Shown here in pieces: positions 8,201-18,793 of a DNA stretch of 50,890 bases. The stretch lies in the NCBI GenBank assembly GCA_947456055.1, contig CANGSR010000001.1:1-50890 (forward strand), given 5' to 3'. This DNA is from Chitinophagaceae bacterium (GTDB lineage: Bacteria > Bacteroidota > Bacteroidia > Chitinophagales > Chitinophagaceae). Positions within the stretch are counted from its first letter, which is position 1, and each line of letters opens with the position of its first letter. A program made the position numbers and the translations under genes. The notes under the pieces are model-generated. The model saw only the letters and a list, made by a program, of their open reading frames with translations. It did no database searches and was not told where the DNA came from.

Positions 8201-10357
8201 TTAAACAATGAACACCTGATTTCCAAGCCCTGTTGTTATATAATATAAAGTACCAACAGGTGGTAAAGGACCACCACCTGTCATGTTGCACATATTTTGT
8301 GCTACAAAGGTATTGGAGTGAAAAGCATTACCTAATACTGCAGTTACACCCTGCCCAAATATACCTGCATAGCTAAATCCCGCATCATTATTACCTGAAC
8401 CACCCAAGATCGCTGAACAACTACCAGAAACAGTATTATTAGTACCACCAAAAATAGATGAATGTGCTGTACCAGTACAAATCATATTACTTTGCCCACC
8501 ACCTATTACGGCATAAGATGAGGGTGTTGCATGTGGTGCAGAGTCGATACAATTTTGACTCCCACCACCAATAACCCCAAATATTGAACCATGCCCGGCC
8601 TGACCAATAGCATTTAAGTTACCGCCGCTTATAAAACTACAATCGGAACCAGTGAAAATATTATTACTATTACCACCACCTATAAATGATGAAATCCCAG
8701 CATTCATATTGCCACTGCCTCCAAAAATAGTAGCACAGTTGGCCCCGGCACATATAAGATTATTATACCCTCCTCCAATCAAACTATAACAAATATTTGA
8801 TGTAACTGTGCTATCTATACAATTATTTTGACCTCCACCGATAGAAACAAAGGCAACGCAACCTCCCGTTCCTGATCCAATTATATTTAATTCGCCACCA
8901 ATAATAATATTTCCACAACCCCTATTTTTTATTTCATTTTGTTTACCACTACCAATAAAGCTACATTCTGAGTTTAATATGATACTATTTGAATAACCAT
9001 TACCAATAAATGAATTATGTCCATTATTAACATTTAAACATCCATTTCCAATAAATGAAAATTCGTCAGAAATATTATTCGAATCACCACTACCTATAAA
9101 AGAAGATGCACCGAATGCTCTGCCATTGGCGCCTGCACCAATAAATGAACCATTGGTGGCACAATGACTATAACCACCTATTATTACACTATCACAAGCA
9201 ACATTAGCACCACCAGCACCAATAAACGAACCATTTCCTGCAACACAATTACCAGATCCAGCTCCAATTAAACTGCAATTGCCATGATTGCAATTATAAA
9301 TCCCAGCAACAATAGCACTGCCATGGGTATTATCGCATATCGTATTAGTTTCCCCACCACCAATGAAGCCTGATAAAGCAGGTGAGATAACACTAGAGTC
9401 GATGGTGTTTAAATAACCACCTCCAATAAAACTATGCTGTGCATATTTCTGGATAATGTTGGTATCTCCGCCACCAACGAAGGAATGGGTACCACCTGCT
9501 GTATTCGAAGTGCCCCCAACAACAGATGATGAAGCACCGAAAATGTTGTTGCCACATCCACCACCAATAAATGTATTATGAGCTATATTAGTTGAGCCGT
9601 CATCACAAATTAAATTATCACCTCCACCAACTATTGACGCATTCCAAACTGCATGAGGAATAATGCTGGTTGTAATTGTATTAGATGTACCTCCTCCAAT
9701 AAATGAGCATTTACCATCCAGATTATTATTATAACCTCCCACAATAGAAGATGTATCTGCATTTAGATTGCCTATTATATTCGAATTTCCGCCACCTATA
9801 AAATGATATAACCCGGTGAATACATTGCAATTACCACTGACTATTACTCCATTATCAGAATTTGTAATAATTGTATTATTTGTACCAGTAAGTATTGCAT
9901 TCCTGTTGGTGCCCTGGCAAATAATATTACCTGTACCACTTCCTATATATGAATAACATCCACAAACAGTATTTCCTATTCCAGCATTTATGAAAGAATA
10001 ATCGGCAGATATATGATGATTACAGCCATTTAGGATACTAGAAAAGTAACCTTCAACACAGTTGCCATGACCGTTAAAAATATTATCAAAACAACCTGAA
10101 ATACAATTACTTGTACCATTACCAATAGTATTGTAACAGCCATGTGCACCTCCAAATGTATTAATGGCATTTAAATCCCCCATTAATATTACTGAAACGT
10201 CGGCACTTACTGAATTACTATTTGTAAAGCTACCACCTAATATTGATGAGCAATTGCCTGATATGGTACCATTACCAGTACCACTGAATGCATCATAGCG
10301 TAATGTCTGGTATTGAGCTGGATCACAAAATAGATTATAACTTGAACTCCATGGCAT
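8201..10357 (-). CDS. Gly/Cys/Asn-rich tandem-repeat protein (SFIGGG..N.I units), YadA-head or phage-fibre-like beta-roll
   Basis: 718 aa ORF with dozens of ~14-20 aa '(S/A)(F/I)IGGG..N.I' units; no obvious signal peptide; stops 10 nt before the next gene's ATG. Confidence 0.75.
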   Translation of the reverse strand: MPWSSSYNLFCDPAQYQTLRYDAFSGTGNGTISGNCSSILGGSFTNSNSVSADVSVILMGDLNAINTFGGAHGCYNTIGNGTSNCISGCFDNIFNGHGNCVEGYFSSILNGCNHHISADYSFINAGIGNTVCGCYSYIGSGTGNIICQGTNRNAILTGTNNTIITNSDNGVIVSGNCNVFTGLYHFIGGGNSNIIGNLNADTSSIVGGYNNNLDGKCSFIGGGTSNTITTSIIPHAVWNASIVGGGDNLICDDGSTNIAHNTFIGGGCGNNIFGASSSVVGGTSNTAGGTHSFVGGGDTNIIQKYAQHSFIGGGYLNTIDSSVISPALSGFIGGGETNTICDNTHGSAIVAGIYNCNHGNCSLIGAGSGNCVAGNGSFIGAGGANVACDSVIIGGYSHCATNGSFIGAGANGRAFGASSFIGSGDSNNISDEFSFIGNGCLNVNNGHNSFIGNGYSNSIILNSECSFIGSGKQNEIKNRGCGNIIIGGELNIIGSGTGGCVAFVSIGGGQNNCIDSTVTSNICYSLIGGGYNNLICAGANCATIFGGSGNMNAGISSFIGGGNSNNIFTGSDCSFISGGNLNAIGQAGHGSIFGVIGGGSQNCIDSAPHATPSSYAVIGGGQSNMICTGTAHSSIFGGTNNTVSGSCSAILGGSGNNDAGFSYAGIFGQGVTAVLGNAFHSNTFVAQNMCNMTGGGPLPPVGTLYYITTGLGNQVFIV

Positions 10358-15728: not shown

Positions 15729-16199
15729 ATGTCCCATTCGGCTACAATAGAACAAAATAAGAAACTTACCCTGCTCCCACTTGATATTCCTAAGGAGATA
15801 CTGGAGGTAATTAAAGCTAACAATATTGCTACTGTATGCTGTTGTGAGGACAATAAGCCACATTGCTTTAGCTGCTTCTATACCTATATGGAAGATGAAG
15901 CCTGCATCATCTTCAAATCATCAGACTCTAGCCGACATATGCAGATATTGGGCGATAACAATATGGTAGCTGGAACAATTATCCCTTTTGAAAATAGCAT
16001 GACCAAAGTAATAGGTCTTCAATTTGAAGGGGTGATGGTAGATAAAGACGCCATAGGCTCCCGTGCCACCAGGCTTTATTATACCCGTTACCCTTTTGCA
16101 GTGGCTGTACCCGGCAGGATTTGGGTGCTACAATTGAAGGCCATAAAATATACCAATACCACCAATGGCATTAAGCATAAGCTGGAATGGGTGAGGTAA
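15729..16199 (+). CDS. Pyridoxamine 5'-phosphate oxidase-like FMN-binding split-barrel protein (YhbP-like)
   Basis: 'PHCFSCFY', 'S...SRH', 'VAGTI', 'GLQFEG', 'Y..RYPFA' pattern. Confidence 0.8.
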   Translation: MSHSATIEQNKKLTLLPLDIPKEILEVIKANNIATVCCCEDNKPHCFSCFYTYMEDEACIIFKSSDSSRHMQILGDNNMVAGTIIPFENSMTKVIGLQFEGVMVDKDAIGSRATRLYYTRYPFAVAVPGRIWVLQLKAIKYTNTTNGIKHKLEWVR

Positions 16200-16267
16200 A
16201 TTTTGAATCAGAATTTTCAGAATTCGTGCGGGTATTTTTGCGGGTGTGTGAAGATTTGACAACTTTC

Positions 16268-18126
16268 GTCGAGTAGGTAGAGGGAGTTTCACCCTAAACC
16301 TCTCACGGAACCGTACTTGATAGTCTCCCATCATACGGCTCTTATTATTCAGACCAGATTACATATTATCCCCAGTGGACAAATAGCTTTGGTTGTGATT
16401 TTTGTATTGTTTCCACCCAGGCTAATCCTTTTCTGAAGCTTTTATATAATTTCTTGTATTTCCTTTTTCCCCAACTGGCTAGTCGGAATGTTACCATAAT
16501 CAACGCATGGTCGAGCTTACTTCTATAAAACTTCCCATAGTAGTTTAACCATCCTCTCAACTTTGGATTTAACTCCTTAGCTATGTCTTTGATTTCACTA
16601 TGTATTGTTTGCAGTGTTCTACATTCCTTTATCTTTTCCCTTATACTCTTTTGGGATTTGGCACTTATGGCTGGAAGGTAGCCTACAAACATTTCTCCCT
16701 TCTTGTTCTTTGCACCTCTTGCCTGAAAACCGTAGCCAAGAAAATCAAATTTCGTGTTGGGATAATCTTCTCCTTTACGATTATCGTCTTTACAATAGAC
16801 TATTTTCGTCTTTTCCGGATGCATCTGCAGCCCGCACTCTTCCAACCTCTTGCCTAACGCCATTTTCAGTTCTTGCGCCTCTGCTAATGTTTTACAATGA
16901 ATGACCGCATCATCTGCATAGCGTTCAAACGGACATTGCGGGTAGTTGCGTTTTAACCAGCTATCCATACAGTAATGCAGAAACAGGTTTGCTAACAATG
17001 GACTTATAACGGCTCCTTGCGGTGTGCCTTTGGGTCGTTCTGTTTGTGTACCGTCTCTACGTTCTAATGGTGCTTCGAGCCACCTTTTAATGTACAATAA
17101 ATGCCATTTGCAGTTAGTATGTCTTTCTACTGCCTTCATCAGCAGGGCATGGGGGATATTGTCAAAGAACCCTTTGATGTCCAAATCCAATACCCAATCG
17201 TATTTCCAGCATCTTCCCCTGCATACCTTTACTGCGTCTGTGGCTGACTTCCCCGGTCTGTAACCGTAGGAGTCTGCGTAGAACACTTTGTCAATTTCAG
17301 GTTCTAATGCTTGTTTTACTACCATTTGCGCAATCCTGTCTGATACCGTAGGTATACCTAATGGACGTTTACCCCCGCCTTTCTTCGGGATTTCTACCAG
17401 TAATACCGGTGGTGGCATATAGCTGCCTGAACTCATGCGAGCCCATAGTTTATGCAAGTTATTTCTAAGGTCTTTTTCAAATTCTTTGATGCTGACCTCA
17501 TCTACTCCCGCACTCCCCTGATTGGCCCTTACGTACAGCCATGCACTCATCACCCACTCTTGTGGAATCTCAAATGATCTTGTCTTCATCGTTCAGTTTC
17601 TCCTGTTTTGCAGTTTTCTTCATGATAAAAACCGAATAATTGTACCCCTTCCCTCCTATCCCATTACAGAATAATCAACAGTACTACGGGTACATCCGCC
17701 CCTTGAATCCGTATCGGTATTTTAGCCTCCTGGGTTCGCCAATTGTGCTTTTTCCCTTAACACCGGAAACGAAGGTTCTCACGTTCCATGTAATAGCCTG
17801 CATTAAGCTCGCACCACTTATACGCCGGATGCCACGAAAGCAGTAATCACGTTTCCCTTTCGTTCTTAACGGGTTCTTTCTGCAACCCGCTTTTGACATC
17901 ACTTCTGACTTTCGACGCCTCAATAGTGGTTCACTTGCGTTCGCCTTCTTAATACTTACCTAATCCCTTTATGGGACTTTTTCCGTAACGTTCAATAACC
18001 TTAGCTTTTGACTAAAGCACCTTACGGCAGTTTGAAACCCCTGCGTGAACAGCGATTCCGGAGGGTCTGCCTCCATCTTTTACACAGCATCCTTGCTAAT
18101 TTCCATCCGCAAAGTTCGTGACACAC
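16268..18126 (-). mobile_element. Complete group II intron, bacterial class D / IIB (RmInt1-like), 1859 nt
   Basis: 5' end GTGTG at 18126; domain V GAGCCGTATGATGGGAGACTATCAAGTACGGTTC; domain VI ending CTACTCGAC at 16268; intact RT ORF inside. Confidence 0.93.
16366..17589 (-). CDS. ltrA: Group II intron reverse transcriptase/maturase, no endonuclease domain
   Basis: RPLGIPTVSDRIAQ, GTPQGAVISPLLAN, RYADD, FDFLGY, maturase LNPKLRGWLNYY; ends FVHW as in RmInt1-type proteins. Confidence 0.95.
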   Translation of the reverse strand: MKTRSFEIPQEWVMSAWLYVRANQGSAGVDEVSIKEFEKDLRNNLHKLWARMSSGSYMPPPVLLVEIPKKGGGKRPLGIPTVSDRIAQMVVKQALEPEIDKVFYADSYGYRPGKSATDAVKVCRGRCWKYDWVLDLDIKGFFDNIPHALLMKAVERHTNCKWHLLYIKRWLEAPLERRDGTQTERPKGTPQGAVISPLLANLFLHYCMDSWLKRNYPQCPFERYADDAVIHCKTLAEAQELKMALGKRLEECGLQMHPEKTKIVYCKDDNRKGEDYPNTKFDFLGYGFQARGAKNKKGEMFVGYLPAISAKSQKSIREKIKECRTLQTIHSEIKDIAKELNPKLRGWLNYYGKFYRSKLDHALIMVTFRLASWGKRKYKKLYKSFRKGLAWVETIQKSQPKLFVHWG

Positions 18127-18793
18127 GAAAAGTTGTCAAATCTGCTACAACATTATATATTCAATGTTGCTAACAAAAATATTGCTGGTATAAAATACCA
18201 ATTAGCCGATAATCGCTCACCTCCGAGGGAGACTCCTATGGAGTCAAAGCTTTGTAGAAAATTGACCCGTAATCGGCAATACCCCGATTTATCGGGGAAA
18301 CGCACATAGCGACATTATTAATGTACCTCACCCCTAACCCACAAAATTACCCATTGGGGCATAATGGGGCATTTTTGGAAATTAAATAATAACACATGTA
18401 ATTGAATATCATTACCTTATGAAGCCCTCATTGCCCCAAACGGTATTATTTTTATTTTGGGAAAATGGGGCATTGTCCGCCGCCGCGGACAACAGGTTTG
18501 TAGTTAACATAAGAGAAGCGACCGACTGCCCCAGCGGGGCTACCGGTATGTATTTTCCGGAAAACTATAGACATATCTCTAAATCCTACAAATCATTATG
18601 CAAACAAAAATCCACCAACAAATAATTTCGCCCACCCACATGCATTACCTAATTTTGCACTCCCAAATCAACCCTGATAGGCATTATCGTATGCAGATTT
18701 GTTTTTGCACGTTGGTTGTCTAAAATATTTTTCCGCTTTTTAGGTTGATAATCAATCAATTGTGAAGATTGCATAAAATTTCTTAATAAATTT

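Follow-up and report, generated by a model that had tools for sequence, protein, structure and literature searches.

How does a group II intron come to sit in the loop of a perfect palindrome, and which of its parts recognise that site? The question is raised by a 50,890-nt stretch of Chitinophagaceae DNA (the window), taken from a draft genome (G000) of 4.97 Mb in 518 contigs that is 83% complete. Removing positions 16268-18126 (minus strand) in silico restores exactly a 33-nt palindrome with a 15-bp perfect stem and a 3-nt loop, as the earlier note had described. The intron splits this loop after its second base, so that the third belongs to the 3' exon. The palindrome begins 52 nt past the end of a YhbP-like gene, to which the intron is antisense. 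The features of the locus are:

15729..16199, plus strand: neighbouring YhbP-like gene (NF002900, below cut-off)
16252..16267, minus strand: 3' exon, made of the last loop base (IBS3, 16267) and the other arm
16268..18126, minus strand: group II intron, class D-like (IIB3), GTGTG...AC, 1,859 nt (Rfam matches and ends)
16268..16343, minus strand: domains V-VI (RF00029, 64.9 bits; also folded)
16366..17589, minus strand: intron-encoded reverse transcriptase/maturase (RT), 407 aa (TIGR04416, 419 bits, cut-off 300; otherwise PF00078 and PF08388 only)
17820, minus strand: U at intron nt 307, predicted EBS3 (wobble pair U-G at the window site, U-A at the second copy)
17876..17881, minus strand: AGAAAG at intron nt 246-251, predicted EBS1 (bases 3-8 of its 8-nt loop; register of the homologues)
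17892..17898, minus strand: TGTCAAA, a conserved domain I structural motif before the EBS1 hairpin, not EBS2 (covariation and fold)
17905..17909, minus strand: GUCAG at intron nt 218-222, predicted EBS2 (left unpaired by the fold; 5/5 pairs with exon positions -13 to -9, TTGAC)
17958..18074, minus strand: 5' part of domain I, Rfam group-II-D1D4-2 (RF01999, 90.8 bits)
18127..18143, minus strand: 5' exon, consisting of two loop bases and one REP-like palindrome arm (IBS1 18132-18127; IBS2 18139-18135)

The machinery of this element looks ordinary, and what is unusual is where it has landed. The 407-aa RT keeps an intact YADD motif and consists of RT and X domains; RVT_1 and GIIM were the only domains matched, so it has no endonuclease domain. 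Over 404 aa it shares 54% identity with an S. medicae intron RT of 419 aa (WP_011970374), which we infer to be that of Sr.md.I1 or of a near relative. In a quick 76-row tree, with 30-38% relatives as outgroups and no named class E or F references included, it falls in the same supported clade as that RT (L301; SH-aLRT 97 and 99, without bootstrap). By sequence it groups with RmInt1-type proteins, whose introns belong to class D (IIB3) and have no endonuclease (PMC4615759, PMC3552965). Class D is also indicated by the GUGYG...AY ends and domains V-VI, by an RT-plus-X protein of this composition, and by the pairing, judged from sequence, of EBS1, EBS2 and a single-base EBS3 with the exons. Class C (IIC) and IIC-attC introns likewise occupy intergenic hairpin-associated sites (PMC12584367, PMC4075523, PMC7923331). 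Class C introns are described as having no EBS2 (PMC4075523) and as inserting downstream of the hairpin, whereas the window intron has a covarying EBS2, lies within the loop and carries an RmInt1-type RT, and is therefore not class C. These features point to a real, intact and recently mobile class D intron whose mechanism is probably ordinary. A scan of the window for sigma-70 promoters gave fewer matches than were found in shuffles.

Three further observations concern the window and the wider class. The window also holds a 718-aa ORF with Gly/Asn/Ser-rich repeats (FIGGG...N) at 8201-10357 on the minus strand. A Maribacter contig (L081) carries two different class D-like introns head to tail. 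A sister clade of the window intron (L015, L067, L070, L071, L105, L112 and L272-L274) apparently starts with GAGTG, GAGCG or AGGTG, not GTGYG, and its members have in common a conserved 5' exon ending in TATT.

Which bases of the intron read the palindrome? The comparison rests on a domain I alignment of 60 homologues whose 5' exons are defined; the boundary pipeline had returned 16 matches without a recognisable 5' end, and 15 of the 76 kept loci were dropped (truncated, non-GTGYG or duplicate) before these counts. The EBS2 position, directly 3' of a TCGRRA motif, forms a mean of 4.05 of 5 pairs with exon positions -13 to -9 across the 60 homologues, against a mean of 3.05 and a maximum of 3.38 in 500 shuffles, the homologues being non-independent (32 target clusters). 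The earlier note had instead named as EBS2 the heptamer TGTCAAA, which is found where it was quoted; the fold and the homologue covariation place EBS2 at GUCAG and leave TGTCAAA outside it. The identical heptamer occurs in 18 of the 60 homologues regardless of target, its mean pairing with the homologues' exons is 2.9/7, and its first four bases lie in a stem of the predicted fold. On these comparisons, its 7/7 match to the exon at the window is a coincidence. The note had listed a fold of this kind as a refutation of palindrome targeting, yet the idea survives the correction: the exon bases that GUCAG can pair with, TTGAC, are nearly those matched by the heptamer.

For EBS1 the earlier note had picked the right loop, with GAAAG at 17876-17880, in a register that is probably one base off. 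Half of the homologues (30 of 60) have a loop of 8 nt; in these, the AGAAAG register gives a weighted mean of 4.38/6 pairs, against 2.30 for the GAAAG register. AGAAAG forms 5/6 pairs at the window site and 6/6 at the site of a second intron copy described below; the other register gives five pairs at the window too, where EBS1 may slip locally. Watson-Crick pairing of EBS3 with position +1 was observed in 0.83 of the weighted homologues, with 0.29 expected. Homologue covariation places all three predicted elements in this way. Together they make 12/12 pairs at the second copy's site and 11/12 at the window site (A-C at -1, U-G at +1), and position -1 is unpaired in just one of the 17 scorable homologues. 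A delta-delta' partner was also sought in the homologues and gave no clear covariation.

Insertion into the loop of a palindrome is atypical for the class: among 58 distinct junctions scored (the window junction, that of a second G000 intron on contig C85, and 56 from homologues), the centred perfect stem at any junction other than the window's reaches 9 bp at most. The palindrome itself is a dispersed repeat. G000 contains 15 empty copies, none within an ORF of at least 100 aa (16 pattern matches, of which that on C96 was discarded as unrelated), which bears out the supposition of an intergenic repeat. The pattern recurs in 19 of 53 genomes of the genus, with up to 25 copies, against 0 for a reversed-pattern control, and a stricter pattern is present in 8 of 401 genomes of the family. 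As in REPs, this is a multicopy extragenic palindrome with a short unpaired centre; the GT(A/G)G head of REPs is absent, and about 5 of the 15 copies have GTAA ahead of the stem. No empty allele of the window locus was found in 8 metagenome runs, of which X9 held the joined form with other flanks, and none of 7 orthologues of the neighbouring gene in the genus had the palindrome nearby. More short palindromes and GGGGCA-rich repeats follow at 18280-18380 of the window, to the right of the intron; letters like these also border the palindrome on contigs C73, C76 and C288, which suggests composite intergenic repeats.

What spreads the palindrome? In two relatives (G196 and G255), paired copies bracket a gene for a HUH-tyrosine transposase-like protein of 211-221 aa. 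These RAYT-like proteins carry HUH and Tyr-NP motifs and match NF047646 with E values of 3.5e-14 and 5.9e-12 (53 and 46 bits, cut-off 80); a Pfam search returned no match to them. Four of the five closest RAYT-like loci have 7-10 palindrome arms, two of the four having been picked for their arms and two being independent. The other 25 of the 30 loci have 0-1 arms, and many of these have palindromes of their own. A cognate RAYT was not found in the 83%-complete G000, none of the six Y1 transposase matches there is flanked by the window palindrome, and five palindrome-rich genomes of the genus gave three weak RAYT matches, all without arms. Two Y1 transposase genes in G000 (C173:5109-5880 and C6:2186-2605) have a third palindrome family alongside (CTTTCGGATT-nnn-AATCCGAAAG). 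The window palindrome shares with described REP-RAYT systems (PMC2817692, 10.1101/119735) its multicopy extragenic character, a centre of 2-4 nt and, in the relatives, its position flanking a HUH-tyrosine transposase-like gene. Unlike those systems, it is AT-rich with the head GTAA in some copies, the relatives' proteins score below the NF047646 cut-off, and no such gene was found in G000. On sequence grounds, we regard the palindrome as REP-like and likely RAYT-spread.

The search for other copies of the intron uncovered a second, identical one, in another copy of the palindrome and in the same register. Its ends lie on two contigs, the first 130 nt on C334 and the last 113 nt on C259, both 100% identical to the window intron and joined to the palindrome arm, with outer flanks that differ from those of the window. 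The loop reads TT|A there and TC|G at the window site. Both genomic copies are therefore in the palindrome (2/2), and about 2 of 17 palindromes are occupied. In metagenome runs X1-X3, intron depth is about twice flank depth and exactly the window and C334/C259 flanks are seen, a sign of two copies. X1 and X2 are possibly the source runs of the assembly, and X3 comes from the same study as X1.

Lake metagenome contigs gave more arm junctions among the matches listed, in X6 and X13 record 8, whose 3' and 5' flanks respectively are new, in X16 record 15, and in X7 record 17, the last with a flank resembling that of C259. Two variants were also present among the matches listed: in X3 record 21 an intron diverging after 24 nt sits in the same palindrome register with a new flank, and in X7 record 21 an intron about 87% identical has an exon that departs from the arm after 5 nt. 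Intron 3' ends with non-palindrome exons occur as well among the matches listed in X7 and X13; since domains V-VI are conserved across the class, these are unattributable to the window intron. An exact scan of metagenome contigs for the arm plus intron, with a pattern that proved too short, gave 0 intron junctions in the best 80 of 117 loci.

Two identical copies in two palindromes could also have come from a single chance insertion, after which a RAYT or recombination duplicated the intron together with its palindrome as cargo. The 100% identity over the comparable 130 and 113 nt and the flanking of RAYT-like genes by the palindrome in relatives would suit such a history. The two sites, however, differ at two of the three loop bases, those touching the intron ends, which largely excludes it; the EBS elements match the arm, and the diverged intron of X3 record 21 has the same register beside another flank. 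We consider duplication as cargo highly improbable.

The reading we favour, and hold to be probable from the sequence evidence, is that an endonuclease-less class D intron at a fixed register in two copies of a REP-like palindrome retrohomes there by EBS-IBS pairing. In the spliced lariat with its RT, EBS2 would pair with positions -13 to -9 of the invariant arm and most of EBS1 with positions -6 to -3, and the variable loop bases (-2, -1 and +1) would be read loosely, a G accepting C or T at -2. RmInt1 and RmInt2 suggest that the lariat would reverse splice at the replication fork, where its target is single-stranded, and that distal bases, here inside the conserved arms, would be read by the protein. 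A RAYT-like transposase likely spreads the palindromes and would so provide fresh harmless sites for the intron. The palindrome presents a target on both strands, and for this reason the lagging-strand template would offer a usable site at every copy. Target matches are indeed found on both strands in most palindrome copies, with at least 11/12 pairs at 17 of the 30 strand-sites (15 empty copies, both strands). Skew is near zero in the window; the lagging-strand orientation fits at C334 and weakly at C259.

How far does pairing confine the intron to the palindrome? With wobble allowed and -1 left free, 413 sites in the 4.97-Mb assembly fit, 98 of them outside ORFs and just 15 in empty palindromes, so pairing alone may not suffice. 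Requiring Watson-Crick pairs on the arm leaves 21 fitting sites, 14 of them in empty palindromes. The 413 loosely compatible sites, with 98 outside ORFs, and the mere two genomic copies seen would agree with insertion at many EBS-compatible sites and persistence of the harmless intergenic ones, the palindrome being a frequent harmless match. Palindromes make up less than one fifth of the non-ORF sites, so that two copies out of two would be an outcome of about 3% (an estimate), unlikely under loose pairing followed by survival but natural under strict pairing. Several more metagenome junctions, among the matches listed, likewise lie in the arm, and we think such a survivor bias quite unlikely.

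The palindrome might instead assist targeting by its structure: a hairpin or cruciform would extrude, and the intron RNP would read the stem and insert in the exposed loop, which would explain the tolerated poor pairing at -1 and +1. This would agree with an intron that sits at the apex of the loop on a 15-bp stem (-13.5 kcal/mol predicted as DNA), with the imperfect pairing of both junction bases at the window copy, and with published cases in which hairpins are read by class C introns (PMC12584367) or REP symmetry axes are the insertion point of two IS elements (PMC1525189). However, IBS1 and IBS2 would be buried in the stem of the folded hairpin, strict sequence matching alone largely confines the sites to the palindrome (14/21), and an 84% relative with the same scaffold has a non-palindromic target. 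The minimal target of RmInt2 is reported to span -16 to +7, with protein-read distal bases (PMC4615759); the matching positions fall within the conserved arms here, which makes hairpin reading unnecessary. We regard targeting through an extruded structure as unlikely.

The favoured reading also has its closest published precedent in RmInt2 of Sinorhizobium meliloti GR4 (class D/IIB3), which uses the inverted repeats of an IS (PMC4615759). Both introns are endonuclease-less with U as EBS3, have a 2-nt linker between IBS2 and IBS1 and show relaxed pairing; in RmInt2 the inverted-repeat target doubles the sites and guarantees one on the lagging strand, as the palindrome would by analogy (PMC4615759). 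They differ in that RmInt2 targets the terminal inverted repeats of ISRm17 (PMC4615759), whereas the window intron, known from sequence alone, occupies the loop of a free-standing, dispersed intergenic 33-nt palindrome. RmInt1 and Sr.md.I1 have the same EBS layout, with IBS2 at -13 to -9; unlike the window intron, RmInt1 homes into an IS, pairs EBS1 over 7 positions and is strict at EBS3, for which selections returned exclusively Watson-Crick pairs (PMC4615759, PMC4075523). Set beside this, the wobble at +1 of the window site counts against the favoured reading, as does the mismatch at -1.

Is the palindrome a target of the wider class? Among placed relatives, the closest is 84% identical and survives as 489 nt of 5' sequence in the same genus (L402, G423:C212, intron start at locus position 1449). 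It has other EBS letters at the same positions, and its EBS1 (6/6) and EBS2 (5/5) match a target of its own that is not palindromic. It is inserted directly after TTATCCACA, which occurs as a single such box in the locus and matches the DnaA-box consensus. Of the 60 homologues, 18 are inserted in Ala-Asp-Asp codons resembling RT active sites, and others at unique sites or in codons that resemble those of IS66 transposases. Protein relatives at 70-86% identity exist, on short contigs; searches of genus and family genomes returned no relative above 60%, and the best in viral contigs were at 57% or less. The earlier proposal that the intron is tuned to a REP-like palindrome holds in that the predicted EBSs match it and both copies lie in it, and has to be narrowed: by sequence, this target is specific to the lineage of the window intron and its near-identical variants, and is not that of the 84-87% relatives or of the wider class.

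G000 holds one more intron of interest, a 727-nt ORF-less element at C85:10506-11232 (minus strand; locus set L004-L006) that matches both Rfam models, has a longest open frame of 66 aa and is 69% identical to the window intron in domain I. A second 5' end at C112:12700-12818 (plus strand) makes at least two copies. Both lie directly before an ATGT that closes another repeat, an imperfect hairpin some 95 nt long with 71 copies in G000, 67 outside ORFs, and the EBS1 of this intron, CCCCCU, fits the consensus of that repeat. Its contigs point opposite to the lagging-strand orientation. The window protein is the sole intron RT found in G000, and its mobilising the ORF-less intron in trans is conceivable at most, since that intron resembles another subgroup and shares 79% identity with L400 along its length. 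G423 and G429 hold related copies that are ORF-less or partial (L398, L400, L403-L405).

Other repeats recur at intron targets. A Holophaga intron (L044, G449) lies within a dispersed ATCCTG-rich repeat of 45 copies, often in inverted pairs. Two class D-like introns (L061 and L062, G450:C1:4339827-4426570) lie within a 24-nt palindrome with 20 copies on one strand within about 90 kb, an arrangement that resembles a gene-cassette array. Further candidates gave no support: the repeat at the L090/L290 targets had 5, 1, 0, 0 and 0 matches in five genomes, and the G429 target motif just 2. The 5' ends of L398 (G423:C226) and L404 (G423:C12) follow a small hairpin motif of 10 copies; the EBS1 of L398 fails to pair with that flank, possibly through mis-assembly or recombination, and L398 was not counted as an example of repeat targeting.

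A bolder extension would be that class D introns in this group serially retune their EBSs onto RAYT-spread REP families, so that the autonomous and the ORF-less intron each own one family, that perfect symmetry frees an endonuclease-less intron from replication-strand bias, and that the extruded loop is possibly read. We offer this tentatively and think it doubtful in full. Fixed insertion points in REPs, on the symmetry axis in two cases, have been described for ISPsy8, ISPa11, ISPpu9/10 and ISRm19/22 (PMC1525189); those elements are DNA transposases, and the window element is a ribozyme with an RT. The same source tabulates a P. putida group II intron with 2/9 REP association, below its 100% type 1 class (PMC1525189). 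IIB introns are reported from integron arrays (PMC7923331). In the literature searched, mostly outside subscription journals, we found no paper describing group II intron homing into REPs, and the window arm sequence is absent from the main text of PMC3733652.

REP palindromes would join IS elements and the RT genes of other introns as safe havens of class D introns. This small, naturally occurring system may serve to test whether a target that folds on itself when single-stranded is open to invasion by an intron with no endonuclease, and whether symmetry abolishes strand bias. One genome appears to hold two introns tuned to two repeat families. If the serial-retuning reading were true, REPs would be a renewable niche, with one parasite living off the repeats of another.
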